Shown here in pieces: positions 271 through 46,800 of a stretch of 64,000 nucleotides of DNA. Within the stretch, counting starts at the first letter, position 1, and each line of letters begins with the position of its first letter. A model generated the notes under the pieces. The model ran no database searches. It saw only the letters and a list, made by a program, of their open reading frames with translations, and was not told where the DNA came from. Position numbers and translations under genes: made by a program. Location of the stretch: positions 682,001-746,000 of the forward strand of contig VRMN01000004.1 of NCBI GenBank assembly GCA_008690995.1, in the 5' to 3' direction. This DNA is from Porphyridium purpureum. Taxonomy: Eukaryota.

Positions 271-705
271 TGTGTGAACTTCGTGCAAATGGGTCGAGCC
301 GAACGCACGCGAATGAACCTGCTGATGAGGAACAGGGCGCGCCAGAGCTTGCTGACGTGAAAGAGGGCGCACAGTAGTGTCGTGGCCCACAATGATTCGG
401 TTGTGCGACCGTCCAGGGGGTCGTGACGGGAACGGACGCAGAGTTTTTTGCGCCTGAGGGGGCGTTTTCTCGAGCGGACCGTTTTGGACAGAAAGGTATA
501 TAAAGTACGTTCGACAGGTGTTAGATTAGAGTGAGCCAAAATAAAGAGGGCACCGTTGACGAAGAAATAAGAGCCTACAAGGTGTTGAGAAGCTGCACAA
601 CGGTCCTTTGGCAGCAAAGAAGAACAGGAGGTGAGCACCGTGTGTGTACAGTCGACGGACTGTGACACGCGGTGCACACAGAGTGGGAAGGCGTTTCCTA
701 CAACA
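271..705 (+). repeat. Copia 5' LTR (435 bp)
   Basis: TGTGTGAACT...CCTACAACA; matches 5037-5471 with one substitution noticed (G394 vs A5160); TATATAAA near 497-504. Confidence 0.93.
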
Positions 706-733
706 ATCGCGATTTAAAGGGAAACGGAAGGAC

Positions 734-3700: not shown

Positions 3701-5143
3701 GGCAACATGGACAAGGATAAGGAACTCTTTGTGTCAAACGCACCTACTCTGAGAACGAGCTCTGTACGCATGATCTTAATGAGCAAAGCGGAGCGGAAAG
3801 ACTGGGACCTGTGGGTCGAAGACGCCGACCAGGCGTTTCTGCAATCCCTGTGGGAGCTGAATAGGGACATTTATGTAGTGCCGCCTCGAGAGTGGACTGC
3901 AGTAAATGCTTCTGGCGTTATGTGGAAACTGCGGTTACCTCTCTATGGATTGGTGGATGCGCCAACTTATTGGTCGAAAAGCATCTTGTCGATCCTGACG
4001 CAGACTGGTTTCTCCGTCAGTACTGATCCGTGTTTGTTCACTTGTGCGAAAGACGAAAAGGAGAGCGGTTTTGTTGGTGTGTACGTTGATGACCTGCTCT
4101 TGTGCGGAGACGAAGCACTGAAGCAGAAAGCCGCCCTTTTGGAAACACGAGTAGAGATGAAGCAGAGAATTTTCCTGCGTAGAGACAACGCCATCTCATT
4201 CGCTGGAATGCAAGTGCGCGAGGTCGAAGACGGTCTGACCATCAAACAAACGCCAATCGACGTTCTTGAAGCTCACGATTTCTCATCCTTAAGGTCACTA
4301 CGTGGTAAGTTGAGCTGGTTAGTGAATGGCACCAGAGCGGATCTAAACTACCTCTGCGCGCAATTGATGCAAGTAACAGACGTGACTTACGATCAGACGA
4401 GAGTAGACGAGCTACTCAAGAGGGTAAAAAAGGCGATGAGACATTGGGACGGATCCGTTCTAATACGAGGTCTTCGCGGCGAGGATACAACGGATCGGGC
4501 ACTGCGAATCGAAGTGTTTGCGGATGCCGCATTCGCAAATAACCAAGATCTTTCGAGTCAGCTGGGATACATTGTGTGCGTGGTCAACGACAACGGTCAT
4601 GCTGTACCCTTGCTGTGGGGATCCAAGAAGGCGAGAAGAATTACCCGCTCCGTCCTGGGTGCGGAAATCCTTGCCTTAGCTGAGGGTTTCGACGCTGGGA
4701 TCTTTATTCAAACAACGCTGCGAAGTATCGGGATGGACTTACCCCTGGGCCTGGTGACCGACAGCAGGTCCATATTCGATGCAATATCAACAGACAGACT
4801 TCCGGCGGAGAAAAGGCTTGCGCTGGATATTTCTGTCTTAAGAGAGGCTTTCAAGAATGAGGAAGTTGTGAGTATTAAGTGGGTGAGGTCGGAAGGAAAT
4901 CCAGCCGACGGACTTACAAAAGCGGAACCAAACAAGGCGCTACTTCGACTTCTGAAGGACGGTACAATTAACTTGGTGATCGAGCAGCAAATTAAGCAAT
5001 CAACCAGCGTTCGGCTCGCACAGAAAGAAGAGCGACTGTGTGAACTTCGTGCAAATGGGTCGAGCCGAACGCACGCGAATGAACCTGCTGATGAGGAACA
5101 GGGCGCGCCAGAGCTTGCTGACGTGAAAGAGGGCGCACAGTAG
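734..5143 (+). CDS. Copia gag-pol polyprotein
   Basis: First in-frame ATG at 734. Zinc knuckle CNICSSEWHLMRAC, protease VDTGA, integrase HHCC (LHRRFGH...CRVC) and D..D..E, RT DADQAFLQ / LYGL / YVDD, RNase H ...NPADGLTK. No internal stops. Confidence 0.95.
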   Translation: MTQTRGALQRRRDQPRQSGMPDTSSSEEAEAMGSGTGSPPGSVAQDAGASGAASIGLASQTATPSDEHALAEWEELKRSVLDLMSGPSLLDEFALSASRKMIDGLSCAKQREVALFLKRQGGLDFDSNERYINVLKRMIPDDDSVASGRLVRGVDRGAATLARYLEKATKFDGSEHCDIQLCEQDFRMNCDLAGVNAATALSAVHMVLGGAARQLFIKERNQFASIGDVWKRLRERFVGEDQKDSLETAWTNLSLDSFRREHPDEPDTKLLERLMATATTLQNQLDRDLQSDKNLLITLKRAVKGESFSRALWYNPPKTSQEAITRLKLAASAERVDKSDTFWTANRYERKKNRTGRDGKTLKCNICSSEWHLMRACPKATVEDDVRLAELLRDTTVDEAENDEMSADASEREKEAKAFDTHFVDSEDEDEVEVFFATSRGAKLSRQTMSLCVDTGAPRSVVGLRSLEAYKRRNPVHIRKGEPVSFRFGQTVLDSIGVVRVRVPTDDAAGMVEFDSHVVNDKKTDKALPFLMGMDALEGVTLSVGEKPTLKYPNGDTVTLTRKNGHLVSLNDIESFYTMVEATKLHRRFGHLTGTRVLELVKKADPTMNEDELRELAEKLGRARTECRVCEEQEQKPLRPAVAARWPDEIRFNHTVIMDVMFSERPSDKAILQMICKDTGYTLACYVNSKSAKDVTAAFLKEWVTHTSGLPEVVKVDMGTEFVNMHFVAMMNSMGVCVETAGIEGAWQMGRGEQAHGPLKQILNKLKSERSSSGLGDDDVLGLATKAMNDSMNADGLVPTLLVFGCTPRTPIGSNIMGCPDQRARMEVMRFARTEYEVLIARRRLSMALSSRYPAERVMKPGDRVKVYRFRRRLWEGPYALKEIDYTSNVAVVDDNGKNLKFSVAVVRPYREPAHGFDRPESVYLEQGQPEKDDERWDDAKRIELEGLERRHVWDLVPAEQVPHGSVILRTKWVLKVKPDRMKARLTVLGNMDKDKELFVSNAPTLRTSSVRMILMSKAERKDWDLWVEDADQAFLQSLWELNRDIYVVPPREWTAVNASGVMWKLRLPLYGLVDAPTYWSKSILSILTQTGFSVSTDPCLFTCAKDEKESGFVGVYVDDLLLCGDEALKQKAALLETRVEMKQRIFLRRDNAISFAGMQVREVEDGLTIKQTPIDVLEAHDFSSLRSLRGKLSWLVNGTRADLNYLCAQLMQVTDVTYDQTRVDELLKRVKKAMRHWDGSVLIRGLRGEDTTDRALRIEVFADAAFANNQDLSSQLGYIVCVVNDNGHAVPLLWGSKKARRITRSVLGAEILALAEGFDAGIFIQTTLRSIGMDLPLGLVTDSRSIFDAISTDRLPAEKRLALDISVLREAFKNEEVVSIKWVRSEGNPADGLTKAEPNKALLRLLKDGTINLVIEQQIKQSTSVRLAQKEERLCELRANGSSRTHANEPADEEQGAPELADVKEGAQ
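5022..5032 (+). other. Copia polypurine tract
   Basis: AGAAAGAAGAG, 4 nt before the 3' LTR. Confidence 0.7.
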
Positions 5144-5471
5144 TGTCGTGGCCCACAATAATTCGGTTGTGCGACCGTCCAGGGGGTCGTGACGGGAACG
5201 GACGCAGAGTTTTTTGCGCCTGAGGGGGCGTTTTCTCGAGCGGACCGTTTTGGACAGAAAGGTATATAAAGTACGTTCGACAGGTGTTAGATTAGAGTGA
5301 GCCAAAATAAAGAGGGCACCGTTGACGAAGAAATAAGAGCCTACAAGGTGTTGAGAAGCTGCACAACGGTCCTTTGGCAGCAAAGAAGAACAGGAGGTGA
5401 GCACCGTGTGTGTACAGTCGACGGACTGTGACACGCGGTGCACACAGAGTGGGAAGGCGTTTCCTACAACA
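5037..5471 (+). repeat. Copia 3' LTR (435 bp)
   Basis: Direct repeat of 271-705. Confidence 0.93.
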
Positions 5472-5540
5472 CGACTGTGCCATCGAGTGCACACAAACAA
5501 CTGTACTCAGGGATGTGAGGGTGTACACTTAATAGCAGTA

Positions 5541-5638
5541 AAGTGCGTCTCAAACAAATAGGACACTGCAAAATTTGTCTATTTTCATAGTAAATTATGA
5601 AATTTTACTGTGAAGACGTGTTTCGGAGGGGGAAACAG
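5541..5638 (+). repeat. Tc3-like left TIR, outer 98 bp (continues at 12877-12898)
   Basis: Reverse complement of 19500-19597 with two mismatches; contains outer DR CTCAAACAAATAGGACAC (5549-5566). Confidence 0.92.
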
Positions 5639-5823
5639 TGTCACGAACCGTGCTGGCCCAGGACACAGCGGCACACCCAACAGCAAGCCAAGCGGCACAC
5701 GCACGCACACAAGCTGGACAATCCACGCAACCAAGAGGAAACACAAGACACCCGCAGCCAACTGGACCTGCGGCAGGCAGGAAACCCGGAACCAACGACG
5801 CTCACGCACGCTGTTCACACGCA

Positions 5824-5950
5824 AACAGCCAAGAGCACCCACACACGGGACCGACAGAACCAACCAAGAGCAGACACACGGGAAAGACACAGCCAACCAA
5901 GAGCACACGCACGGAGCAGGCACAGCCAACCAAAAGCACACACACGGAAG
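5824..5950. repeat. ~33-bp degenerate tandem repeat (about 4 units) in G1 LTR; second copy at ~12014-12140
   Basis: Units like ACAGCCAACCAAGAGCACACGCACGG... Confidence 0.7.
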
Positions 5951-6227
5951 ACGCGCGTAACGGGGGAACCAGGCGTCCGCTGCCCAACCGGGATCCCGTT
6001 CGGCCACACCTTACGGTGATCCGGGACCCGGGGAGGCGTTGTGGGCAGCCGGGGTTAGCCGGAGGAGGTTGCCTCACCTTTCGGCTTCAAACGGCCTATC
6101 ACTCCTTTATCCGCCCCCGCCCACGTACCACCCCCGGATCCACTTCCGAACAAGGACCGTCTAATGACGCCTTACCCCAGGGCATCCGCGAACCTTCCCC
6201 GTTAAACCCCCCGCTCGCTCGCTCGCG

Positions 6228-6293
6228 CTGTACTCCCGCCGTACCCCCGCCGTACCCCCGCTGTACTCCCGCTGTACCCCCCCTGTACCCCCC
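6228..6293. repeat. 11-bp tandem repeat CYGTACYCCCG (6 units; 5 units in the other LTR)
   Basis: Direct reading of 6228-6293 versus ~12418-12471. Confidence 0.85.
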
Positions 6294-6695
6294 CTCCCTC
6301 AACAGGTACCCAAGGCCCGAACACGCTTCCTTGAATACACCTGTTTTTACTTAGATCCACCTTCACCCTTCTGTCTCCCGACCCCCCTCTCCCCTCCTTG
6401 GTTGCCGACCCGCGCGTCTTTTTATACCCATCGCGACCACTGTACCCCCGAGGTACAGTGCCTTGCTGTCGCTGAGTCTAGAACCTTCCAGAAGGTTCCA
6501 GCCACCGCCTGGCTGTACACCCATTCCATACTGGGTGGTCATCGCGCGTCTGGTCCCTAAGGGAAGGGGCCTTCAGGCCTACCACGCGCCCCCTTGTACA
6601 CCTACAGTACAGTGGGTCCGGCGCGACCAGGTATCCGGCCACGGACTATGGCTATTTTTAATCATTTCCTTAACACACGGGCTACTCCCGTGACA

Positions 6696-6708
6696 TCCCA
6701 CCCTCTCC
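6696..6708 (-). other. G1 polypurine tract
   Basis: GGAGAGGGTGGGA on the minus strand abutting the 3' LTR. Confidence 0.8.
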
Positions 6709-6934
6709 GCTTCCCAATGTCAGGTATCACATGGTCCGAAGCTTCCGGAGAGTCACTTCATACTTACAGCACATGCCAATGCTTGACGCGTCCGGCATCC
6801 ACGTCTCAAGCTCGATGTCGCCCGTGCACTGGCCATCGGCTTCGTGTGCCCGTCTTGGCATCGTAAGTACTCGAAGAGGACGTCCGTCCACGTGGCCCTC
6901 CACCCGGCCGGTGTGTCCGAGGTTCCGCCACTGG

Positions 6935-9900
6935 TCACGCGTCACGGTAGGCAGCCACCATCATTGGTGGCAATGCGAGCTCAGGTTCCCACGTATCCCC
7001 ACGTTTACCGAGTCCTCGCCATCTAACTCTGTACTCTCGGCGTCCGCCCACAACCCGATCCCCGGCTATAGCCTCTATAGCCCAGCTGCCGTCTTCTCCT
7101 TGCAAGACTTGGGATCCACTTGCCTCAAGGAGGTCCTTGTGGGCCCGAGCAAGCCGGTTCACGTGGACCAACTTCCCGTCAGGATGGCCTTCACTGCACA
7201 GTACTGCATGAACCCCGACCATTCTCAGGATGGATAGTGGTCCTACCCACGGCTTTTTCAGCTTGCGCCCTTCTCCTGAAGGCGGCGCCCAAACGTACAC
7301 CACGTCGCCCGGCTTGAAGTCATGTTCCCTGACTCGGCGATCATAGTTCTTCGTGTACCGATCCTGTGCGATCTTCGCATTCTTATTGGCAATGGCGTGA
7401 CATGCAGCAAGCTTCTTCGCGAGGTCATCTGCTTGTTCAACAGCTCTGGGTCCCGCCATACTTGCCCAGTCCCGCGCCGGCTCACCATACAACAGTTCAA
7501 ACGGAGACATCTTCGTGGATGCATGCCGGGCTGTATTATACGCATACACCATTACCGGCAACCAGCGATCCCAGTCTTTTCCGTTCGCACACACGTATGC
7601 CGACAACATTTGACACACTGTCTGGTTAAAGCGCTCCACAACCCCGTTCGTCTGCGGATGGTATGCTGTCGTAAGCATACGTCCTACACCCAGATTTTCA
7701 CACATTTTTGAAAGGATGTCGGCTACAAAGCCCGGTCCCCGGTCGGACAGCAGAGACTCTGGCGGTCCAAAATCGCACACCCAACCGTCTAGGAAAACAC
7801 GTGCCAGTGTAGCCGCAGTCTCATCCTTGACTGCATGGGCACGAACCCACTTTGTGAAGGCGTCCACCATGATTACCACTTTGCTGTGCCCGCGAGTTGT
7901 TGTCGGTGTGATACTCAGAACATCTATCGAGACAATCTCGAAACGTCTCACCGCGCGATAGACTTGCATGCGAGCCCTTCTCGGGGGCGCCTTTGTTTTC
8001 CTTGAAAAGCACTCATGGCAACAAAGAACAAACTGACGAACATCTTCCGTCCAACCGGTCCACCAGTATCGTGCATCCGAGACCCGCTTTGCAGTCTTTC
8101 CTATTCCAAGGTGCCCTGAAAGTGGCGTGCTGTGATACACATGCAGGACGCGCTGCACCAGAGCGTTTGGTATCACGACCCTGGACTCATCGCGAAGCAT
8201 AGCCCAGATGACTCCATCCTCATCAACGGTGTACTCCGGGTACGTGTATTCGGGCTTGTCTGCTTTCAGATTCTTCAACTGTTCCTGAATGTCCGTGTCG
8301 TCTGCGTATGCAGCCACGATCTCTTCCATCGAAGGTGGTGTGTACGCATCGTTCGCTCCTGTATGCTCGCCAGTATGAAGCAGCAGCTCTCGCACTCCGG
8401 CCGATGTGACAGGGACCATACCCCCATCGGCCCCCGAAGCTGGACCCTGAATCTCTTCCTGCAGCATTTCAGCCAACCGAACTACCCGCTTCACTTCCTC
8501 ATCCTCAACAGCATTCAGTCCAATGAGCTCGATTTCGCTCGTGTTGTTGAGAGTCTCAGACTTATTGCTCTCGCTCGCCACCCGAGCCTCTTCCTCATTC
8601 ATACGTACAGCTGGACGCGAAAGCGCATCTGCCACTGTATTCGCCTTGCCTGGATGATGCTGAACCTGGAAGTCGAAGTCCTGTACCTTGAGAATCCATC
8701 GCGCAATCCGACCTTGAGGCTCCTTTTGCCTCATGAGCCAGCTCAATGCGCTGTGGTCAGTCATGAGCACGAATCGTTTGCCGTACAAGTAATGCCTGAA
8801 GTGCTCCATGGCTGCAATGGCGGCCAAGCACTCCTTCTCCGTCACGGTATAGTTCTGCTCGGCCGGTCTCAGAAGCCTCGAGTAAAATGCCACTGGACGA
8901 TCGCCAGTGCCCTCCCTCTGCGTCAACATTGCTCCCAAGCCAGTGCTAGAAGCGTCTGTCCACAGCGTATGCTCTGCTTCTGGGTCGTATGCAGCCAAAA
9001 CCTTTCGATCTCCAGTTTCTGGATCACTGAGTGCTTCCCGAAGCGACAGAAGCGCCTGACTCTGAGGCTCACCAAATCGTGCCTGCCAATCCGCCGAGTT
9101 CATAGGGTATTTCTTCCACTTGCTTCCTTTGGCGTTGATTTGAAGGCCCTTCATAGCATCCCTAAGAGGCCTGCAGACTTCCTCAAATCCCTCGATAAAA
9201 TTGCGGAACCACCCCACGAGCCCAATGAACTGCTGCAGTTCCTTTGCATTCCTCGGCTCCTGCCATGCTCGCACAGCCTCCGTCTTCCTCTGGCTCGGCC
9301 TTATACCGTCCAGGCCGATATCATGTCCAAGAAACTCGACCCTTAAAGCCCCAAATCTGCACTTCGACAATGAGAACACCAAGCCCGCAGCGCAGAATTG
9401 CTCCAGCACCCGCTGCAGCGCTTGCAAGTGCTCTTCAAACGTCTTTGTCCCGATTGCCAAATCATCAATGTAAACCAATGCATTCAGGTACCTGAGCGGG
9501 CCCAGGACCGTATTTGTCAATCGCTGGAAGGTACTTGGGCTATTACAGCAACCCTGAGGTAATCGGCAGTATTGAAACAGCCCGTCCGGAGTGATAATCG
9601 CTGTCAATGGTCGGCTCTCGGGGGCCAGAGGGACCTGGAAGAAGCCATCCTTCAGATCCAGGATACTCTTGAACTTCCACGATGCAAACCAGTCGATCAT
9701 CTCTCCCACGTCCGGAATGGGATATCGATCTTTAACAGTCGCATCATTAAGCGTTCGGAAGTCTGTCGTCAGACGCCAGCCGCCATTCGGCTTCTTGACC
9801 ATGACATTCTGGCTCGACACATCTGACAAACTCGGCTCCAGCACTCCTCGGGCGACCAGCCCTTGCACCATCTCGCGCTCAGCCTGCGTCACCGCAGGAG

Positions 9901-10720
9901 CCCTGCGACGTAACCTTGCCCTGGGGAGATCCTCCAAACGCTCTGGCTTGATGCGAATCGTATGCTCGACGAGGTCTGTCTTACCCAGCTCCGGCCGGAA
10001 GAGAACCCAAAACTTCTTCAAGAGCCCTTTCATCTCCCTGCTTTGCGCTTCATCCAAATGCTCAAAGATCTTGGCTTCAATGGTAGAACAAACAGCCTCG
10101 TTGTGACCTGCATACTTTTCTTCGAGGGCCTGGATTCGCTTCTTCACTTCTGCTCCATCAGCAATATAGTGCACCGCCTCCAACTGCACCGTGGGTTTGG
10201 CTTCCTCATACATCGATCCCAGGATCCTGTGTCTTTCCAGGCATGTATGACACACGGCTTCCTGTGCACTGGAAACGTCTCGGTTGACAAAAGTAATCCA
10301 TCCGCCCGAGCGTAGGCCCAGACCCTTTCCCGGGATCAAGCAACTGACATGCTTGGCAAGAAAACGCATTCCCAGTATGAGATCAGGTCCGAGGTTCCTC
10401 ATAATCCGGACGCTTTCCTCCGACTGAATTCCCTCACCAACCCAAATTGTGGCAACGCTCTCCTCGGCCTCCCCCAACACCTCATTGGTTGGGCCCAATG
10501 CCTGTGTGTGGGTCTTTCTGCGAAGAAGCCCAAGACGGTCAGCCAAATCGTCGTTCATCCACGTGGATAAAGCCCCCGTATCAACCAGCGCAGTAGTCCG
10601 AACCTTCAGACCTCCCCATTCAGCCTGTACGTGTATCCATGGATACGAGCCCAGTGGGACTGCCTCCGACAATTCTTCAGATTCCGGGGGGCCTTCGCAT
10701 CCCCCCGCTACTCGTTTTTT
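6935..10720 (-). CDS. G1 pol (PR-RT-RH-IN-chromodomain), expressed by -1 frameshift
   Basis: LVDTGA; LDLKDGFFQV...LPQG...YIDD; TDASSTGLGA...TDHSAL; integrase HHCC and SDRG...YHPQTNGVVER; C-terminal chromodomain IEAIAGDR...EYRVRWRGLGKRGDTWEPE. Confidence 0.95.
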   Translation of the reverse strand, partial: KKRVAGGCEGPPESEELSEAVPLGSYPWIHVQAEWGGLKVRTTALVDTGALSTWMNDDLADRLGLLRRKTHTQALGPTNEVLGEAEESVATIWVGEGIQSEESVRIMRNLGPDLILGMRFLAKHVSCLIPGKGLGLRSGGWITFVNRDVSSAQEAVCHTCLERHRILGSMYEEAKPTVQLEAVHYIADGAEVKKRIQALEEKYAGHNEAVCSTIEAKIFEHLDEAQSREMKGLLKKFWVLFRPELGKTDLVEHTIRIKPERLEDLPRARLRRRAPAVTQAEREMVQGLVARGVLEPSLSDVSSQNVMVKKPNGGWRLTTDFRTLNDATVKDRYPIPDVGEMIDWFASWKFKSILDLKDGFFQVPLAPESRPLTAIITPDGLFQYCRLPQGCCNSPSTFQRLTNTVLGPLRYLNALVYIDDLAIGTKTFEEHLQALQRVLEQFCAAGLVFSLSKCRFGALRVEFLGHDIGLDGIRPSQRKTEAVRAWQEPRNAKELQQFIGLVGWFRNFIEGFEEVCRPLRDAMKGLQINAKGSKWKKYPMNSADWQARFGEPQSQALLSLREALSDPETGDRKVLAAYDPEAEHTLWTDASSTGLGAMLTQREGTGDRPVAFYSRLLRPAEQNYTVTEKECLAAIAAMEHFRHYLYGKRFVLMTDHSALSWLMRQKEPQGRIARWILKVQDFDFQVQHHPGKANTVADALSRPAVRMNEEEARVASESNKSETLNNTSEIELIGLNAVEDEEVKRVVRLAEMLQEEIQGPASGADGGMVPVTSAGVRELLLHTGEHTGANDAYTPPSMEEIVAAYADDTDIQEQLKNLKADKPEYTYPEYTVDEDGVIWAMLRDESRVVIPNALVQRVLHVYHSTPLSGHLGIGKTAKRVSDARYWWTGWTEDVRQFVLCCHECFSRKTKAPPRRARMQVYRAVRRFEIVSIDVLSITPTTTRGHSKVVIMVDAFTKWVRAHAVKDETAATLARVFLDGWVCDFGPPESLLSDRGPGFVADILSKMCENLGVGRMLTTAYHPQTNGVVERFNQTVCQMLSAYVCANGKDWDRWLPVMVYAYNTARHASTKMSPFELLYGEPARDWASMAGPRAVEQADDLAKKLAACHAIANKNAKIAQDRYTKNYDRRVREHDFKPGDVVYVWAPPSGEGRKLKKPWVGPLSILRMVGVHAVLCSEGHPDGKLVHVNRLARAHKDLLEASGSQVLQGEDGSWAIEAIAGDRVVGGRREYRVRWRGLGKRGDTWEPELALPPMMVAAYRDA
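10685..10720 (-). promoter_or_regulatory. -1 ribosomal frameshift signal of G1
   Basis: A AAA AAC heptamer (10720-10714) in the gag frame, 6-nt spacer, then a CGGGGGG...CCCCCCG stem-loop; the -1 frame is open into pol. Confidence 0.88.
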
Positions 10721-11649
10721 GTCTGGCGTTCTTCGGTCCTCTGCCTCTTATTTTTCTCCCACTTTGGGCACTCCATGCGAACGTGGCCCCGCTCCTGGCA
10801 CTCCCAGCACTTGACCAGTCGCTTGCGAGGATTCAACCCAGGGAGCCCAGCTTCATCAAAGTTACCCAAATGGTGCACGCGCTCGGGCTTCCTCACTGCC
10901 CTTACACCGTACTGCGAGCCAAGCGCACCAAAGGTTCCATACTGACCAGCCTCCTCCAACAGAGCAGTCTTCATCAAGGTCCAGTTCCCCTGTATGCCGT
11001 ACGTCCTGGCCTGACGACGCAGCTCGGAGTTTTTCGGAAGCGCCAACGTAAGTGCCTCAATCTTGCGAGTGTCAGATTCTCCCAGAGCCGTGCAGCGATC
11101 CTCCAGGACCTCCACGAATTTCTTTAGGTCCTGGCCAATAACATACTCAACATCGTGATGCTCTGCACGAAGGGCGCGCTCGTGCTCCTTGTTGTAGAAG
11201 TAAGCAGCCACAGCCGCCCATGCCTCTTGTGCTGTTGCACCGTGCAACTCCGACAGGACCTCGTAGCATTTCCTCAGCCCCACCCCGCGGAAAACTGCAT
11301 CAATCGAGGATACATGTTGGTCTGGATCCTCTCCCATGTCACGCAGGCGATTGAACCAGACCATCTTGGCGGTCAGAAAAAGTGGATCACCGGCCTTCTC
11401 AATCTGCACGCCCGCGTCACAAATAGCCTGGCCCAGTTGAGAACGAATCTTGCCGCGCACAATGGCGGGGACACCCTCTTCCTTCTGCTGAACACTCACA
11501 ACCCCATGACTTCCTATCTCGTCACCACGAGCCGTGGGCATTGTCGGCTCTGGTGCCAGCGCGCCAGCCTGTGCACGTTCCAGCTCGCTCGAGGACGCGT
11601 GCTCTCGCGCATCGTCTGAGCCCATCGTCGTCTTCCTGCCACGCACCAT
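10708..11649 (-). CDS. G1 gag
   Basis: ATG at 11649; C-terminal zinc knuckle CWECQERGHVRMEC. Confidence 0.9.
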   Translation of the reverse strand: MVRGRKTTMGSDDAREHASSSELERAQAGALAPEPTMPTARGDEIGSHGVVSVQQKEEGVPAIVRGKIRSQLGQAICDAGVQIEKAGDPLFLTAKMVWFNRLRDMGEDPDQHVSSIDAVFRGVGLRKCYEVLSELHGATAQEAWAAVAAYFYNKEHERALRAEHHDVEYVIGQDLKKFVEVLEDRCTALGESDTRKIEALTLALPKNSELRRQARTYGIQGNWTLMKTALLEEAGQYGTFGALGSQYGVRAVRKPERVHHLGNFDEAGLPGLNPRKRLVKCWECQERGHVRMECPKWEKNKRQRTEERQTKNE

Positions 11650-11828
11650 CTTTGCGACTTCGTTCCTGCTCTGAATCCTCTCTCGCAATCCTTCACTCGG
11701 TGACCGTACGTATCAGAATGTGGACACAAGTTTGTCCAAGATCAAGACCGATCTCACGTCCACACCCCACCCTCTCTCGCACCAACGTCAGATGCCACGC
11801 AATCCTGGAAGATAATTTCCGGAAATTA

Positions 11829-12872
11829 TGTCACGAACCGTGCTGGCCCAGGACACAGCGGCACACCCAACAGCAAGCCAAGCGGCACACGCACGCACAC
11901 AAGCTGGACAATCCACGCAACCAAGAGGAAACACAAGACACCCGCAGCCAACTGGACCTGCGGCAGGCAGGAAACCCGGAACCAACGACGCTCACGCACG
12001 CTGTTCACACGCAAACAGCCAAGAGCACCCACACACGGGACCGACAGAACCAACCAAGAGCAGACACACGGGAAAGACACAGCCAACCAAGAGCACACGC
12101 ACGGAGCAGGCACAGCCAACCAAAAGCACACACACGGAAGACGCGCGTAACGGGGGAACCAGGCGTCCGCTGCCCAACCGGGATCCCGTTCGGCCACACC
12201 TTACGGTGATCCGGGACCCGGGGAGGCGTTGTGGGCAGCCGGGGTTAGCCGGAGGAGGTTGCCTCACCTTTCGGCTTCAAACGGCCTATCACTCCTTTAT
12301 CCGCCCCCGCCCACGTACCACCCCCGGATCCACTTCCGAACAAGGACCGTCTAATGACGCCTTACCCCAGGGCATCCGCGAACCTTCCCCGTTAAACCCC
12401 CCGCTCGCTCGCTCGCGCTGTACTCCCGCCGTACCCCCGCCGTACCCCCGCTGTACTCCCGCTGTACCCCGCTCCTCAACAGGTACCCAAGGCCCGAACA
12501 CGCTTCCTTGAATACACCTGTTTTTACTTAGATCCACCTTACTCCTTCTGTCTCCCGGCCCCCCTCTCCCCCCCTTGGTTGCCGACCCGCGCGTCTTTTT
12601 ATACCCATCGCGACCACTGTACCCCCGAGGTACAGTGCCTTGCTGTCGCTGAGTCTAGAACCTTCCAGAAGGTTCCAGCCACCTCCTGGCTGTACACCCA
12701 TTCCATACTGGGTGGTCATCGCGCGTCTGGTCCCTAAGGGAAGGGGCCTTCAGGCCTACCACGCGCCCCCTTGTACACCTACAGTACAGTGGGTCCGGCG
12801 CGACCAGGTATCCGGCCACGGACTATGGCTATTTTTAATCATTTCCTTAACACACGGGCTACTCCCGTGACA
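11829..12872 (-). repeat. G1 5' LTR (1044 bp)
   Basis: Direct repeat of 5639-6695; TATAAAA on the minus strand at 12603-12597. Confidence 0.94.
12657..12676. promoter_or_regulatory. Heat-shock element in G1 LTR (copy at 6480-6499)
   Basis: aGAAccTTCcaGAAggTTCc: four perfect alternating nGAAn units, ~55 bp upstream of the TATA box. Confidence 0.75.
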
Positions 12873-12876
12873 ACAG

Positions 12877-12898
12877 GATGCTCAAACAAATAGGACAC
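12877..12898 (+). repeat. Tc3-like left TIR, inner 22 bp with inner DR
   Basis: GATGCTCAAACAAATAGGACAC is the reverse complement of 19478-19499. Confidence 0.9.
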
Positions 12899-12931
12899 TT
12901 GACAAAGAGAGACTATATGGAGCTCTAGGGA

Positions 12932-13784
12932 CTAAAAGTTCTGGACGTTTGCGCCCTCCTTGTTCACGCACCGGTGTAGACGTGCATTCCACCCCGTCAG
13001 AAGGCTCCGAACCTCTGCGTTCGTGATCGACGCCCAGACTTCTATGATTTCAGCCTCCAGCTCCGAGAGAGACTCATACTGCCTGTTTCCGGCGTACATT
13101 CGGCGCGACATTATGCTCCACACGTTCTCCACCGGATTCAGGTCTGGCGAGTACGCTGGCCAATCCATTACATGCCATCCTTCGCGCGCGAAGAAGGACT
13201 TTGTATTCCGCGCCACATGAGCAGGGGCATTGTCCTGCATGAATGTCCATCCTTCTGGATGGGTTTCACTGACGATGGTCGCCACTCGAGAGGACTCCAG
13301 CATGGCCACATAGTTTTCTGAAGTGATCCTTGCTGGGGTCTTCAGGAGCGCCATCTTCCCAGCGGAAGAAATTGCCATCCAAAACATCACACTTCCACCG
13401 CCCGTATGACGGCGGACTCGATCCGGGAACTCTCCTGTCCGGACCCACTGACCAGAATACCCATCAGGGCCATCTAAATTGAACTTCTTTTCATCCGTAA
13501 AGATGACTTTCCTATGCTCTTCAATTTTATTCAGATTTTGCATGGCAAATGCCACGCGACGCAGCCGATTCTCACGGGAAAGAGGCTGCCTGACGATGGC
13601 ACGCCGAAAGGACAGATCATCGGCCATATTGCGCCTCACTGTCTCACGGGTTACCGGCTTCCTTTGGGACCTGCCGGTATTGACCTGCATTGTGGGAGCC
13701 TTTAGAGGGCTCCTAGGAGCCGCTCTAAGTTTATTGAAAACACGCGTTTGAGCGGGTCCTGTGAATTTACGGGCATTCTGATTG
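12932..13784 (-). pseudogene. Tc3-like transposase, C-terminal part (interrupted by G2)
   Basis: VIFTDEKKFNLDGPDG; FMQDNAPAH...SPDLNPVENVW with D-34-E spacing. Confidence 0.93.
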
Positions 13785-13789
13785 CCGAC

Positions 13790-14086
13790 TGTTACCAATG
13801 CTGTGCCTTTTACTCTGCTTCTTCTTTCTTGCCTCTCCTGTCTCCGAGCAAGACCTGACCGGCTAGTCCGGGCAGGCGCGTCGCCTTTTTATACCCTTAC
13901 TTCCGCCAGGGACAGCAAGGCGCCAAGAGAAATGACAATGCAAACCATTGGCATTTCTGCGCGCGTCTAGAAGGTTCTGGAACCTCTAGAAGGTTCTAGA
14001 AACGGTTAAACGGTCTACCGGCTTAGCGGCTTACCGGTTTCGGATTAACCGAACCGTTCTAGGTGACTGGGGTCGAACGGATAACA
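13790..14086 (-). repeat. G2 3' LTR
   Basis: Direct repeat of 18960-19255; PPT AAGAGGGGGGGAGA at 14100-14087. Confidence 0.94.
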
Positions 14087-14205
14087 TCTCCCCCCCTCTT
14101 GGCTCGACGTCTCGGCGAGACTCCAAACTAAGTTGCATTCTTGGCTCGAGGAACCCGCGCTCCGGGAGAAAACCTCTGCCTAGCAAACTTCTCACAATAC
14201 CCAAG

Positions 14206-17200
14206 TCATTCGGAGTCAGACTCCTCGATAATTTTCAACAAGTCTGGCTCAGAATCGGACGCCGGCATTTCGTCGGGTACTTCTTCATCATTTTCCCCTG
14301 CCATGTAGTCTTCGCGTCCATAGTATGGCTTCAGATGCTGGATCGGAAAAACATCATGACAAGCCACACCCTCAGGCAAAACCACTCGGTAAGCATGCGA
14401 GCTTACCTTCTCAATGACAGGCACCGGACCAAGAAACTTTGGTGCCTCCAAATCACTCTTGTTCGGCCGCAGTTGCGGCGCCGTGACCAACACTTGATCA
14501 CCAACTTGAAACTCCCGGGCATCCTTGCTTCGATCGAAGAACTTCTGCATTCTCCCCTGGGCTTCGATCAAATTGTCGCGGACTTCTTCATGGACTTTGC
14601 ACAGGCGAAACCAGTGCTCCGCCATGTCCTTCGTCTGTCCGTCGCGCGCAGGCCTCCACCCTTCGCTCGGTGGAAACCAAGGATCCCTTCCATATACCAC
14701 TTTGAACGGCGCGAATCCAGTGGCACTGCTTGGTGCAGAGTTGTACGCAAACTCGTACAACGGCAAGTCTCGCACCCAGCCACTATTCGTCGCCATCAAC
14801 TTGAGCATTTCCCGAATCACGCGGTTCACTCGCTCAGTTTGGCCATCTGTCTGCGGGTGGTTGGCAGTAGACATTGCCAACTTCATGCCCACCCGCTTGC
14901 TCAGCTGCTGCCAAAAGGTGGACGTGAACAGCGGATCTCGGTCAGATACAATTGACTTGGGGTATCCGAAACGGCTCACGACGTGCTTCACGAACAAGTC
15001 AGCACAACGCTTTGCTGTCAAGTCCTTGCGCGTCGGGATGAACAGCGCCATCTTCGAATAGCGATCCACCACAGTCATGATTGCATCACAGCTGCCTTCG
15101 CTCCGAGGCAGCTCTGTCACAAAGTCCATCGAGATGTCGACCCAAGGTCCTTCTGGGATCGACAAGGGCTTCAGCTTTCCAAACGACCGATTCTCTGACT
15201 TTGTCACTTGGCATGCGTGACAAGTCTTCACAAAACGGCTCACGTCTCGCTTCATCTTTGGCCAGTAGAAGCGAGTGATCAAAGATGCATACGTCGTGTC
15301 TGCCCCACGGTGTCCTGCTGTCGGGATATCGTGGTGGAGTTGCATGACACGCTCTCTGAACTTCCTCGGCACGCAAACGCGATTCCTCAAGTACAAGAGC
15401 CCAGCTTCGGTTCGAAAACCCTGGTGGGTCGGTAAGTCTTCCATCAAAGTACCCAAGTCTGGGTCACTCGAGTACGAACCCACGAATGCCTGGAAACCCG
15501 CACCAAATTCATCACACCGAACTTGGTACTCTAGCGCGTGCAACTCTGGCTTCCTCGACAAAGCATCGGCTACCACGTTCGACTTTCCCTTCACATAGTC
15601 GATCGTGATGTCAAACTCGGCTAAAAAGTCCAACCACCGTGCCTGCCGGCCATTCAGCTCCTTCTGCGTCATCAGATGTTTCAACGCCTCATGATCCGTA
15701 TGAAGCACAAACTTTGCCCCGTACAGATAAGGTCGAAACTCTCGCAGACAGTGAATGACGGCCATGAGCTCACCTTCGTAGCTGCTGTACCTGGTCTCTC
15801 GGTCCAGCAGCTTACTCGACGTAAACGCGACCGGTCTGCCTTCCTGTGCCAGCCATCCCCCCACCGCGACTTCAGAGCGGTCCGTGTACACCTCAAATGG
15901 CTTTTCAGGGTCTGGCAAGGCCAACACCGGCGCTTCCGTCAACATCCCGACAATCTTCTTGAAGGCCGACTTGCCTTCATCTCCCAGTTCGATCAGCTGC
16001 TTCTTCGACTTTGCGCTCTGCAACAGCGAAGTCAGCGGCGCCACGACGGTAGAGTATCCTTTGACAAACCTGCGAAACCAGTTTGTCATTCCCAAAAAGG
16101 ATCTCAACTCCGTCACCGTCTTTGGCACTGGCCAATCTCTCAAAGCTTCCACCTTCCGTGGATCCATCTTCACGCAACCGTTGCCGACAATGTTCCCCAG
16201 GTATTCGACTTCAGAAACGAAGAAGCTGCACTTCTTGCGCTTCAACCGATACCCCGCCCTTTGCAAGCGCGACAACACTTCCTTCAGGACCTCGCCGTGC
16301 GACTGCCGATCCTTGGTGAAGACCAAAATATCGTCCAAGTAGACAATGACGGTCTTGTCCAGCAGATCTGCAAACAGCTCGTTCATGGCCCTCTGAAAAG
16401 TTGCCGGCGCGTTGCAAAGACCAAACGGCATCACACGGAACTCGAACTGTCCGTACCTGGTCTGGAACGCGGTCTTCGGCACGTCCTCTCCCCGAACACG
16501 CAACTGGTGGTATCCCGATGCCAAATCCAACTTTGAAAAACAATGAGCTGCTCCCAGTCGATCCAGCAACTCATCCATGTTCGGCAAGGGATACCGGTCC
16601 TTCACGGTTGCGTCGTTCAACGCCCGATAATCCACGCACATCCTCATGCTGCCGTCTTTCTTCTTCACGAACAGCACGGGTGCTCCAAAGGGGCTCTGAC
16701 TCGGCTGGACGAATCCCTTGTCCAGCAAGTCATCCAAAGTCTCTCGGAGGACTTTCAACTCCGCAGGGCTCAGTCGGTAGACCCTGCCCACTCTCACAGG
16801 CTTCTCATCTTTCAGCCTAATCACATGCTCCACTGTTCGGCTCTCAGGCAGCCCACGTGGCTCCTCGAACAGATTTTCAAAATCATTGAGCATCTTCTTC
16901 ACAGAGTCATCTCCTTTGGGCTCCACTGAACAGGGCTCCTCCCTTCCTTTCAGCACGCCGAGGTAGCACTCTTCTACCTCCTGACTCTTCAACAGCCGAC
17001 GGAGCTCTTTCCGCGGCACCAGCATCTGCGTCATGCTCCAGGCCTTCTTCTCTCCGTAGGCCAACATGCCAGACTGCCAATCAATCACTGGGTTCTCCCG
17101 CTTCAGCCACTCCATGCCCAAGATTGCGTCTTGTCCCGCAATCCGGCAAATGGCAAAGTTAGCGGCCCCTGAGTACCCATCGCTCAGTTCAAACTTGACA

Positions 17201-17604
17201 TTGGAGACTTCTCCGGCTGTCTCCAATACAGACCCGTCTGCCAGGGTCACATGATCTCTCTTCCACGACGCCTTCCGCTTCAGGCCGTCGGATTTCTGCA
17301 CAAAGTCCACGCTCATAAAGTTGTCCGTCGCGCCACTGTCAATCAAAAACGTGGCCTCTCCGTCGGACTTGTGCACTTTTCCTCGAACTCGAAGAAGCAT
17401 GGCAGCTCCCATCCCTCCAAGTTCCTTGATCACGGGCTGATTTTCGCTCGAGTTTCGCCCACGAGGTTTCGGACAGCCAGACCTTGGCTTACCAAGGCCA
17501 CCACAGCGGTCTCCATTGCCGCCCCTAGAGGTCTCGTAACGTCTGCGAGCCTCCTTTCCCTCTGACTGTCCGAGGAACCTCTCTGCTCGAGCTCCTAGTT
17601 TTTT
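14206..17604 (-). CDS. G2 pol (PR-RT-RH-IN), expressed by -1 frameshift
   Basis: LIDSGA; LDLASGYHQL...MPFGLCNAPATFQ...YLDD; TDHEALK; ISMDFVT...SDRDP...HPQTDGQTER; acidic C-terminus. Confidence 0.95.
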   Translation of the reverse strand, partial: KKLGARAERFLGQSEGKEARRRYETSRGGNGDRCGGLGKPRSGCPKPRGRNSSENQPVIKELGGMGAAMLLRVRGKVHKSDGEATFLIDSGATDNFMSVDFVQKSDGLKRKASWKRDHVTLADGSVLETAGEVSNVKFELSDGYSGAANFAICRIAGQDAILGMEWLKRENPVIDWQSGMLAYGEKKAWSMTQMLVPRKELRRLLKSQEVEECYLGVLKGREEPCSVEPKGDDSVKKMLNDFENLFEEPRGLPESRTVEHVIRLKDEKPVRVGRVYRLSPAELKVLRETLDDLLDKGFVQPSQSPFGAPVLFVKKKDGSMRMCVDYRALNDATVKDRYPLPNMDELLDRLGAAHCFSKLDLASGYHQLRVRGEDVPKTAFQTRYGQFEFRVMPFGLCNAPATFQRAMNELFADLLDKTVIVYLDDILVFTKDRQSHGEVLKEVLSRLQRAGYRLKRKKCSFFVSEVEYLGNIVGNGCVKMDPRKVEALRDWPVPKTVTELRSFLGMTNWFRRFVKGYSTVVAPLTSLLQSAKSKKQLIELGDEGKSAFKKIVGMLTEAPVLALPDPEKPFEVYTDRSEVAVGGWLAQEGRPVAFTSSKLLDRETRYSSYEGELMAVIHCLREFRPYLYGAKFVLHTDHEALKHLMTQKELNGRQARWLDFLAEFDITIDYVKGKSNVVADALSRKPELHALEYQVRCDEFGAGFQAFVGSYSSDPDLGTLMEDLPTHQGFRTEAGLLYLRNRVCVPRKFRERVMQLHHDIPTAGHRGADTTYASLITRFYWPKMKRDVSRFVKTCHACQVTKSENRSFGKLKPLSIPEGPWVDISMDFVTELPRSEGSCDAIMTVVDRYSKMALFIPTRKDLTAKRCADLFVKHVVSRFGYPKSIVSDRDPLFTSTFWQQLSKRVGMKLAMSTANHPQTDGQTERVNRVIREMLKLMATNSGWVRDLPLYEFAYNSAPSSATGFAPFKVVYGRDPWFPPSEGWRPARDGQTKDMAEHWFRLCKVHEEVRDNLIEAQGRMQKFFDRSKDAREFQVGDQVLVTAPQLRPNKSDLEAPKFLGPVPVIEKVSSHAYRVVLPEGVACHDVFPIQHLKPYYGREDYMAGENDEEVPDEMPASDSEPDLLKIIEESDSE
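17570..17604 (-). promoter_or_regulatory. -1 ribosomal frameshift signal of G2
   Basis: A AAA AAC (17604-17598) immediately before the gag stop; pol is in the -1 frame; possible downstream stem AGGAGC...GTTCCT. Confidence 0.8.
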
Positions 17605-18389
17605 GACTCCAGCGAGTCTCCCTCCAGCTGCTGGATAGTCTTCCTTGCCTCGGGACACGTCCTGGCGATGTGCCCCGGCTTTCCACAATTCCAGCACTTG
17701 ATCTCGGTACGAACACGCCTCTGACCCTGCACATGTCCCAGCTCCATCGGGACAGGTCCTTCCTGCGCTGCACGACCGAAAAATGGCGCCCTCACACTTG
17801 AATCACGCACGCCGCGGGTCGCATGAATGGCGTCGTCCACGACCACCGCCACCTGCGCAGCCTCCGCAAACGTGCTCACTCCTCGCTTGTACACTTCCAA
17901 GCGGACCTCGGGCTTCAGACCCCTCACAAAGCGGTCCATCATTTCTGCGTCCGACAAGTCCGGAATCACAAGTGCCGCGTCCTGAAAAGCCGCCACATAC
18001 GCATGGGCCGGGCCTTTCTGCGAAAGACGCGTCAACTTGTCCCTTGCACGCCTGATCGAATCCTGCGGCGTGAACCGAGCACTCACGAGGGCAGCAAAAT
18101 CATTCCACGTCGTGGGGATCTCCTGCGGGTAGTGTTCGCAGTTTAGAACCCACCAATGAAGCGCTTCTCCCTCGAAATAGTCTGATGCCAGGTCCACAGC
18201 ACGCCTCTCCGCAAGCAGACGTTTCTCCAAATCGTCCGGGTGGAAGCTCTCCAACAGCCGGCCCAAGATCTTCTTTCTCGCCTGGAACAACCACGTCTTC
18301 ACGACCAGAAGGTCCCTCTTCCCGTCGAACCTCATCAGACGGGCCTCCTTCGGGCCACGTGGTCCCAGCGTCTCCGAATCAATCTCCAT
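17595..18389 (-). CDS. G2 gag
   Basis: ATG at 18389; retrotransposon gag motif (FEGEALHWW...F...F...LSQKG...FVRGLK), PVPMELG, zinc knuckle CWNCGKPGHIARTC. Confidence 0.92.
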   Translation of the reverse strand: MEIDSETLGPRGPKEARLMRFDGKRDLLVVKTWLFQARKKILGRLLESFHPDDLEKRLLAERRAVDLASDYFEGEALHWWVLNCEHYPQEIPTTWNDFAALVSARFTPQDSIRRARDKLTRLSQKGPAHAYVAAFQDAALVIPDLSDAEMMDRFVRGLKPEVRLEVYKRGVSTFAEAAQVAVVVDDAIHATRGVRDSSVRAPFFGRAAQEGPVPMELGHVQGQRRVRTEIKCWNCGKPGHIARTCPEARKTIQQLEGDSLESKN

Positions 18390-18945
18390 GCTTTCTGGAC
18401 TAAAGCACACTCAACGATCACGACAACGACACAAACAGCAAGCCTCCGACGCTCACTTTCTCCAACAGCTGCGCGCACCACGAACGGGCTCGGTCGCCCT
18501 CACGAACACAAACCGACACACGAAGCTGTCCTCTCACGCACACACACGCACAGCAATCTTCTCACGTACACACGACAAAACACACAGCAATCCTCCTCTG
18601 TTGCGCTGGATGGGGAGCGGCCCGGGCCTTTGCACTGGGGCGGGGATTATAGATGCGATCTTATATGGAGGTGTTCGGCGCCTACCTTCGCAAAGGTGGT
18701 CGTGCGACACTAGGATGAATCCTAGTGAAGGCTGACCGTTACGGCTCTTGCCTACTAATACGTGCTAAGGCAGAGAGCGAGTCCGCCGTCAAGGCCTAGG
18801 CCTATCGTACAGCCAAGACTGAGACCCGCTTCCACCCGTCGCACCCTCCGGATCGACTTACTCGAACCCCCTCACCCGCAGACTCTCCCACCCAGGCAAC
18901 CCCAGAGAAACTCTAAGAGAACCTTAGAGCAACCCCAGGTAACCA

Positions 18946-18957
18946 GCGATGATACCA
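18946..18957 (-). other. G2 primer-binding site (tRNA-iMet type)
   Basis: TGGTATCATCGC, 2 nt after the 5' LTR; resembles the canonical TGGTATCAGAGC. Confidence 0.8.
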
Positions 18958-18959
18958 AA

Positions 18960-19255
18960 TGTTACCAATGCTGTGCCTTTTACTCTGCTTCTTCTTCTTG
19001 CCTCTCCTGTCTCCGAGCAAGACCTGACCGGCTAGTCCGGGCAGGCGCGTCGCCTTTTTATACCCTTACTTCCGCCAGGGACAGCAAGGCGCCAAGAGAA
19101 ATGACAATGCAAACCATTGGCATTTCTGCGCGCGTCTAGAAGGTTCTGGAACCTCTAGAAGGTTCTAGAAACGGTTAAACGGTCTACCGGCTTAGCGGCT
19201 TACCGGTTTCGGATTAACCGAACCGTTCTAGGTGACTGGGGTCGAACGGATAACA
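18960..19255 (-). repeat. G2 5' LTR
   Basis: Direct repeat of 13790-14086; TATAAAA on the minus strand at 19062-19056. Confidence 0.94.
19138..19171. promoter_or_regulatory. Double heat-shock element in G2 LTR (copy at 13969-14002)
   Basis: GAAggTTCtgGAA cctcta GAAggTTCtaGAA, ~76 bp upstream of the TATA box. Confidence 0.72.
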
Positions 19256-19416
19256 CCGACGTAGCCTGGGGTCGCGTCGGGCTGGTCCAGAAAGCGTTTT
19301 ACGGCATTTCTGGACCGATCCGCGCGCGTGGCTATATCGGACGATTTCAGCCCCTCCGCGCGCCATCCCCAGATGGCACGCTTCTCCGCCTCGGTCAACG
19401 CACCCGCGCGCCCCAT
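19256..19416 (-). pseudogene. Tc3-like transposase, N-terminal HTH part
   Basis: MGRAGALTEAEKRAI...IATRADRSRNAVKRFLDQP resembles the Tc3 N-terminus; joins in frame to 13784 (161+853=1014 nt). Confidence 0.9.
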
Positions 19417-19477
19417 TTCCCGCCCGAAATCGCCCTCTTCTTGTCGACTGGCCGCCGCCGGGTGCGCCAAAACGCTT

Positions 19478-19597
19478 GTGTCCTATTTGTTTGAGCATCC
19501 TGTTTCCCCCTCCGAAACACGTCTTCATAGTAAAATTTCATAATTTACTATGAAAATGGACAAATTTTGCAGTGTCCTATTTGTTTGAGACGCACTT
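19478..19597 (-). repeat. Tc3-like right TIR (120 bp, IR/DR type)
   Basis: Contains GTGTCCTATTTGTTTGAG twice; followed by TA. Confidence 0.93.
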
Positions 19598-20050
19598 TAC
19601 ATAAAAGGTACAGTGAGCGTTTCTCCAAGTGGCGCGATAATGGATTGTGCTGAGAACCGGACCAAAAAAAACGTTCGTGCTGTTTGTACTAAAGAGGCTG
19701 TGGTTTGTCATGGCCATGAACGGTTGACGCATTGGCCGCTTCGCGCAGTTCTGAACCGTTTCTTCGTGTGCCACACCATCTGGATGCACCCGCAACACGT
19801 CGCGAGCGTCGCTACGCGCCACGTTCCAAGCGCTTGACCTGGGCGCATCGGCCGCCTTGGTCTCCCGCTGCGCGCCAGCTTAGCGCTGCGCTTGTACTTG
19901 TCCTACGGACGGTCGATACCTGGCGCTCCGCGCGGAACGTCGTTCCTGGGAGTGGCAGGCTTCGTTCAATGGTGGCACGCATGACAAAGGTGGAATTCTC
20001 GTTAACTGTTTTACTAGTAAACTTGGGCGGATCACACTAACAACTACTAA

Positions 20051-46364: not shown

Positions 46365-46800
46365 CCTACCCCGTCTGCGTCTCGTTTTCTTTTTTGTGTC
46401 GCACCTCACGCCGTTCGAGGCCTAGCCCAGCTCGCGCACGCCTCAGCCTTCCGCCTTCAGCGTCGTTACGGCACGTCGACTTGCCTCCTTATCCTCCGCC
46501 GCTGCACATGTCGCAATCTCGCGCGTGGAGAATGAACGCGAAATGTAATGTGGCATTGTAAACCAATGCGTCATTAATACGCAATGCGTCATTACAGTGC
46601 AATAAGCATGACGAAGCCAGCAGAGCGTGCAGGAGAGAAGAGGAGAGAGAGCGAGGGAGCAATGAGTTGATGCAAAGCGCAAATGCGCGCATAGCGAGGG
46701 AATACAGAGTCGAAAAGGGCATGCTCAAGGTAGCTCTCGGCCACATTGCATAGTCTCCCTGCTCCTACGTGGCGGAGGCCAATTATCTCGAGTTGACGAG

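Follow-up and report, generated by a model that had tools for sequence, protein, structure and literature searches.

A perfect palindrome at the primer-binding position of a chromodomain Gypsy element in the red alga Porphyridium purpureum, and a possible role for the partner genomic RNA as primer

The stretch of Porphyridium purpureum DNA analysed here (the window, 64 kb) holds a 7234-bp Ty3/Gypsy element, G1, on the minus strand. G1 has the PR-RT-RH-IN order, TG...CA LTRs, a polypurine tract (PPT) and a target-site duplication (TSD), and its features are as follows:

5635..5638, no strand, 4-bp TSD ACAG (other copy at 12873-12876)
5639..6695, minus strand, 3' LTR, 1057 bp, identified from the LTR pair
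6696..6708, minus strand, polypurine tract adjoining the 3' LTR
6935..10747, minus strand, pol, 1270 open codons with protease, RT, RNase H, integrase and chromodomain (Pfam)
6965..7084, minus strand, chromodomain at the integrase C-terminus, aa 1222-1261 (PF00385, E 1.8e-7)
10685..10720, minus strand, likely -1 frameshift signal, heptamer A AAA AAC read in the gag phase and then a 7-bp GC stem
10708..11649, minus strand, gag, 313 aa with its ATG at +180 and a C-terminal CCHC knuckle in the translation
11829..12872, minus strand, 5' LTR, 1044 bp, TGTCAC...GTGACA, its end fixed by the 3' LTR and by loose ends in public runs

The gag and pol frames are both open and overlap in the -1 frame, where the putative signal follows the heptamer rule for -1 frameshifting. 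Between the two LTRs there are 5 substitutions and 15 gap columns in 1058, and Pol shares 98.3-99.6% identity with 14 long proteins of a cluster of 16 (of which 13 are named Porphyridium purpureum), so the family is young. Judged from these comparisons, G1 is an intact and recently active chromodomain Gypsy element, as an earlier reading of the letters alone (the sequence-only reading) had concluded from intact ORFs and near-identical LTRs. The target of G1 was the terminal inverted repeat of a Tc1/mariner element, an uninterrupted copy of which at 19478-19600 confirms the TSD. Together they make up a nested cluster (5538-19600), in which G1 lies inside one terminal repeat of the Tc1/mariner (DDE_3 ORF, 12932-13888) and a second Gypsy element, G2 (13790-19255), is inserted in the 5' part of the transposase.

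Public gene models (P0001, P0121-P0133) present gag and pol fused as 1544-aa proteins from which the CCHC knuckle region is missing, apparently through a false intron laid across the frameshift. In runs X15 and X3 the LTR contigs are several-fold deeper than the internal ones, a ratio of contig depth and not of copy number, which may reflect many solo LTRs. Elsewhere in the window, a 4032-codon open frame (46666-58764, plus strand) has no Pfam match at E 0.001.

In RT-RNase H trees, which hold no curated reference elements and whose deep branches are not resolved, G1 groups with the Porphyridium families P0003, P0004 and P0008, with P0007, P0009 and P0015, and with nine metagenome loci (support 99-100). 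A separate clade (support 95-99) contains G2, P0077, P0102 (Paspalum) and other chromodomain hits. By these trees G1 is a chromodomain Gypsy that falls outside the clade of G2 and the plant and fungal chromovirus-like hits and does not appear to share the canonical chromovirus grouping. The nine loci come from 41 metagenome loci that were gathered; two of the nine (L002 and L014) reach the 5' junction. Scans of viral contigs gave no match with alignment A1 and only 8 distant matches (26-28% identity), which were left out, with alignment A2. A scan of genome contigs, followed up in four genomes, returned Gypsy contigs that all lie outside the G1 clade and were used only as controls. The prokaryote genome bins G001-G004 (L042-L045, L054-L088) hold 2 to 46 matches each to eukaryotic Gypsy Pol, and these are likely contaminant contigs.

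In element sense, the 5' LTR ends in GTGACA and the element continues with TAATTTCCGGAAATTA-T. The same LTR end is marked in two public runs by loose ends at 11828/11829 that stem from other insertion sites. The letters at 11812-11829, ATAATTTCCGGAAATTAT, are their own reverse complement, and the palindrome that they form stands in the place of a primer-binding site (PBS):

11812..11829, minus strand, perfect 18-bp palindrome at the primer-binding position, made of a 16-bp core and one LTR pair
11813-11828, minus strand, 16-bp core, +1 to +16 after the 5' LTR
11829 with 11812, minus strand, outermost pair of the palindrome, between the terminal A of the LTR (11829) and the T at +17 (11812)

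The sequence-only reading had described a perfect 18-bp palindrome that starts from the terminal A of the LTR, and both the reverse complement and the end given by the LTR pair confirm it. It is the longest among 27 perfect palindromes of at least 12 bp in the 64-kb window. That chance or an assembly artefact produced it is barely credible: 0.27 palindromes of 18 bp are expected anywhere in 64 kb, which leaves coincidence some room, but at one fixed centre the expectation drops to 4e-6, and palindromes recur at this position in unrelated elements. In the window and loci together, true cases included, a palindrome of at least 16 bp follows 4 of 53,497 CA sites, and one of at least 14 bp follows 12. 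The letters of 11812-11829 are also the same in 8/8 public runs from 7 studies, an invariance that weighs little by itself given a family that is ~99% uniform, contigs that drop rare variants and one run that may be the source of the window; the same runs show four variable leader sites in 11650-11735, 77-162 nt from the palindrome. The G1 palindrome is real and well beyond chance.

No TGG lies within 0-5 nt of the 5' LTR of G1; the first one is at +32, which makes a tRNA 3' end unfit as the primer and agrees with the claim that the site has no TGG. The 64-kb window contains no tRNA, and no Rfam family matched 11500-12900 at E up to 1. Self-priming of the Tf1 type is recognised by a complement of at least 10 nt in the 5' LTR to a site 0-5 nt after the LTR (PMC6317226, in excerpt). 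In G1 the longest such complement has 6 nt when exact and falls short of 10 nt even with one mismatch (8 nt), so the absence of a Tf1-type complement, which had also been claimed, holds; the comparison lacks a clean positive, as the three fungal-type elements taken as controls reach no more than 8-10 nt when one mismatch is allowed. Elsewhere in the 7.2-kb element, the longest exact complement of the site, for starts at +1 to +6, has 4-7 nt. An imperfect transcript 5' end might still prime in the Tf1 manner, with the palindrome incidental or auxiliary. Positions 533-541 and 545-553 of the LTR can pair with +3 to +11 in 9-bp helices that include 2-3 G-U pairs, and the RNA-type contigs of three studies start at LTR positions 558, 581 and 674 (12315, 12292 and 12199), although contigs cannot show a start. 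Both helices, however, mispair at +2, beside the priming end, the best duplex (-11.6 kcal/mol) is equalled by 46/300 LTR shuffles, and G1 stands outside the clade that holds G2 with the plant and fungal chromoviruses; priming of this kind is very unlikely. The argument that a PBS must be an exact copy of its primer was dropped as proof: it is true for retroviruses and not for Ty1/Ty3 (PMC5371799, in excerpt).

Two other elements in the window allow a comparison of primer sites:

18950..18959, minus strand, TT-TGGTATCA after the 5' LTR of the control Gypsy G2 (13790-19255), a tRNA-type primer site
271-705 and 5037-5471, plus strand, LTRs of the window Copia, 99.8% identical
705..714, plus strand, Copia palindrome AATCGCGATT, 10 bp from the terminal A of the 5' LTR, read as A-ATCGCGAT-T

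G2 had been put forward as a control with a normal iMet PBS. The site is there; that it is of the iMet type is our assumption, taken from the TGGTATCA/TGGTAGCA pattern (cf. PMC3587641) and not from a host tRNA. The window Copia (271-5471, plus strand) has an intact single ORF, with CGAC before both LTRs and after the 3' LTR.

In 11 elements a second LTR defines where the LTR ends: four of them have a palindrome at +1 (G1, the window Copia, L013 and L018), four have TGG at +1 to +3 (G2, L063, L066 and L069) and three have neither; the two features never occur together (0/11). Outside this tally stand L011, L015, L019, L021, L080 and L083, in which the repeat is assembly overlap at contig ends, and L079, whose end is unclear. 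L013 and L018 sit on other Gypsy branches, and the trait is thus scattered. Within the G1 clade, the locus L002, from a sister clade with 43% RT identity to G1 (clade SH-aLRT 100), reads GCGACA and then TAAGAAATTTCTTA, a perfect 14-bp palindrome that shares the outer TAA...TTA with G1 and differs in the letters inside. L014, which is frameshifted and 89% identical to L002 at the junction, keeps 5/7 pairs. For both loci the LTR end was placed from context and not from a second LTR, at a CA that follows a GT-rich U5 and precedes the gag ATG by 153-208 nt, and a MAFFT alignment of their junctions with that of G1 leaves the LTR ends out of register. The expectation that relatives would conserve the palindrome is borne out by L002, with other letters, and only in part by L014.

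Three further sites were noted. L019 reads TTCA and then ATAATATTAT-T at what is probably the end of its LTR, though this end is not fixed; L004 has, at 109-130 near its contig start, inverted TGGTGA/TCACCA arms around a 10-bp AT palindrome, the LTR end again not being fixed; and a 10-bp palindrome in L022 was rejected, as it sits inside the element.

All letters differ among G1, the Copia, L013 and L018, yet the symmetry and the register at +1 are kept, with cores of 8-16 bp. In the five perfect cases (these four and L002) there is no central spacer, and in 4/5 the pairing extends into the terminal A of the LTR. Dimeric proteins bind palindromes, and a site used at the DNA level (a symmetric protein-binding site, or a cruciform, that acts in transcription, silencing or integration) would be symmetric too, priming then coming about in some other way. 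Such a site would hardly vary in sequence and length and still hold its register at +1, and it would leave G1 without any primer site; we regard it as highly improbable.

A palindrome at the LTR edge has a precedent in Copia elements of the fungal GalEa type, which have no PBS. Their 9-bp sequence, palindromic together with the final A of the LTR, is accompanied by a downstream complement, the whole being termed the Conserved Hairpin Site (CHS; 2017, PMC5445492). The palindrome was proposed there as a stand-in for the PBS, and a hairpin with the complement, CHSeq2, was favoured; CHSeq2 is blank for 6 families in the GalEa table (PMC5445492). G1 and GalEa are alike in lacking a PBS and a Tf1-type LTR complement and in having the palindrome at the LTR edge, final A included. 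GalEa, however, belongs to Ty1/copia, whereas G1 is a Ty3/Gypsy element with a chromodomain (Gypsy domain order, RVT_1) from a red alga, and its palindrome has 18 bp against 10. GalEa moreover combines the palindrome with a downstream arm, and G1 has the palindrome only: within 60 nt downstream, no CHSeq2-like complement of the first 9 nt was found with one mismatch allowed, the best having 4/9 mismatches in G1 and 3-4 in the other four perfect cases. The lack of a second arm in G1 points to the palindrome itself as the working part.

The earlier statement that no such site was known for Gypsy elements held, as far as Gypsy is concerned; it had missed both the GalEa Copia precedent (PMC5445492) and the Copia in the window itself (705-714). 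No Gypsy element with a palindromic primer site was found in the full-text literature, a body of text to which most subscription journals do not belong, and no mention of a palindrome was found in excerpts of PMC2806351 (diatom elements) and PMC3587641 (GalEa). G1 carries the palindromic site beyond fungal Copia into a Gypsy lineage; what makes the case valuable is the length of the palindrome, the missing second arm, the presence of two superfamilies in one window and a transformable host. The window Copia has DTGA and ADGLTK motifs like GalEa. A paired change between two GalEa variants was not counted as compensatory, as fungal repeat-induced mutation could give the same paired change.

Other retrotransposons share single traits with G1. 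The Tf1/sushi elements (the clade of Tf1 of S. pombe, Tj1 and Tcn1) are likewise tRNA-free, with a site that abuts the CA of the LTR (PMC4600332, PMC10085805, PMC6317226, all in excerpt). Tf1 primes from its own RNA, through a central duplex and two flanking duplexes (excerpts of PMC10085805 and PMC4600332), and an own-RNA primer is what we propose for G1; Tf1, however, is primed by the transcript's own 5' end, a complement of the site that lies inside the LTR, whereas the G1 site has no complement but itself. PAL6 of Ty3, retroviral palindromes and those in the PBSs of MMTV and HIV-2 resemble that of G1 in being self-complementary, near the 5' end and able to join two RNAs (PMC11381356, PMC8096270, in excerpt); in Ty3, MMTV and HIV-2 they are additional to or within a tRNA PBS, whereas no tRNA site is visible in G1. 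The Dictyostelid Skipper is, like G1, a chromodomain Gypsy with neither TGG nor LTR complement, but its site is a polypyrimidine tract and not a palindrome (excerpt of PMC5006619). The bivalve TRIMs lack a PBS and, as described in an excerpt of PMC6934838, do not have the anatomy of G1.

The sequence-only reading had left two arrangements of the palindrome side by side, a fold-back hairpin and a duplex between two RNAs, and computed energies favour the second: the 18-mer gives -0.3 kcal/mol as a hairpin and -21.1 kcal/mol as a two-RNA duplex. In the five perfect cases the core hairpins range from 0 to -1.1 and the core duplexes from -8.8 to -18.9 kcal/mol (5/5), and the absence of a central spacer suits a duplex and not a hairpin. 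A fold-back in cis, in which the palindrome hairpin is cleaved at its 3' foot and the RNA primes on itself, would by its geometry leave a 3'-OH at the edge of the LTR too; formally, a 7-bp stem closed by a 4-nt loop can form, and PMC5445492 depicts the GalEa CHS as a hairpin. Yet the 8- and 10-bp cores of the Copia and L018 have hairpin energies of 0, and the 18-mer gains hardly more; a hairpin needs no symmetric loop, whereas the perfect cases are symmetric to the centre; and the cut would strip the site from the downstream template, so that a second, whole RNA would be required anyway. The fold-back is thus a poor candidate, quite unlikely though not negligible.

Folding of the junction, by prediction, frames the palindrome with two stems:

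11832..11842, minus strand, predicted short U5 stem-loop that ends just before the terminal ACA, with a stem at the same place in L002 and the window Copia
11784..11873, minus strand, predicted U5-leader pairing, 21 pairs across the palindrome, which is left free for a partner RNA

The U5-leader fold reaches -27.7 kcal/mol, compared with -19.9 +/- 2.6 for 300 leader shuffles, 4/300 of which are as low; 14/300 have as many U5-leader cross pairs. A dimer model of the junction retains both the small U5 stem before the terminal ACA and the U5-leader stem around the palindrome; a point against it is that in the free monomer fold the 3' arm of the palindrome is partly paired in cis. A predicted U5-leader stem encloses the palindrome of the window Copia as well. 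RNA-type contigs cross the G1 palindrome uncut in X14 and X18, which speaks of whole RNA or DNA and not of cleavage.

The reading that we prefer, at roughly even odds (probability about 0.5), is that the partner genomic RNA is cut at +16/+17 and primes minus-strand DNA. Two co-packaged genomic RNAs would pair through the palindrome; a nuclease, probably the RNase H that the element itself encodes, would cleave one of them where the duplex ends on its 3' side (+16/+17), and the 3'-OH set free could then prime minus-strand DNA, beginning at the terminal A of the LTR in the partner RNA. The symmetry is a weak point: the two feet of the duplex are equivalent, and cutting both RNAs would leave no template for the palindrome, so an asymmetry is needed that the model itself does not supply, by which one RNA would stay whole and the palindrome would be copied into the progeny. 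The same duplex may double as the dimerisation signal. With the flanking U5 and U5-leader stems, the complex would take on a three-helix arrangement like the Tf1 'pretzel', its central helix lying between two RNAs.

The palindrome might instead be a dimerisation or packaging signal and nothing else, with a cellular RNA (a tRNA half, a small RNA or a Ty3-like split site) as the primer. Short palindromes near the 5' end drive dimerisation of Ty3 (PAL6; PMC11381356, in excerpt), palindromes lie within the tRNA-binding PBSs of MMTV and HIV-2 (PMC8096270, in excerpt), and half-tRNA primers yield PBSs without TGG (PMC6317226, in excerpt). The known signals are, however, extra to a tRNA PBS and span 6 nt in Ty3, whereas in G1 the palindrome itself fills +1 to +16. 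Nor could one conserved cellular primer fit sites whose letters differ from +4 onwards between G1 and L002 and throughout among G1, the Copia, L013 and L018. We consider a signal of this kind unlikely, if still a serious competitor of priming by the partner RNA.

If the partner RNA is indeed the primer, the palindrome may represent a third route into reverse transcription, next to tRNA and Tf1-type priming, in which the second packaged genome serves as the primer and a single palindrome unites dimer signal, primer site and primer; Gypsy and Copia would have arrived at it independently, both being active in one transformable red alga. This wider proposal is tentative. How reverse transcription starts without a tRNA site or a Tf1-type self-primer is called open in PMC5445492 and PMC5006619. 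Porphyridium purpureum has an efficient transformation system (PMC6110788, in excerpt), and a young family in a transformable alga, with an adjoining tRNA-primed Gypsy and a palindromic Copia as controls, makes the mechanism directly testable. Annotation pipelines that rely on the PBS will miss or misread such elements.

Two other parts of G1 deserve a remark. A G-rich LTR stretch with 11-bp tandem repeats (12316-12580) is uncovered by the RNA-type contigs of three studies and continuous in X3; the gap could come from G-quadruplexes that block library preparation or from transcripts whose ends share hardly any terminal repeat, or none. A long hairpin is predicted in the leader at 11719-11756 (minus strand), downstream of the palindrome and ahead of gag; it has a 16-bp stem in every fold and is a candidate packaging or translation element.
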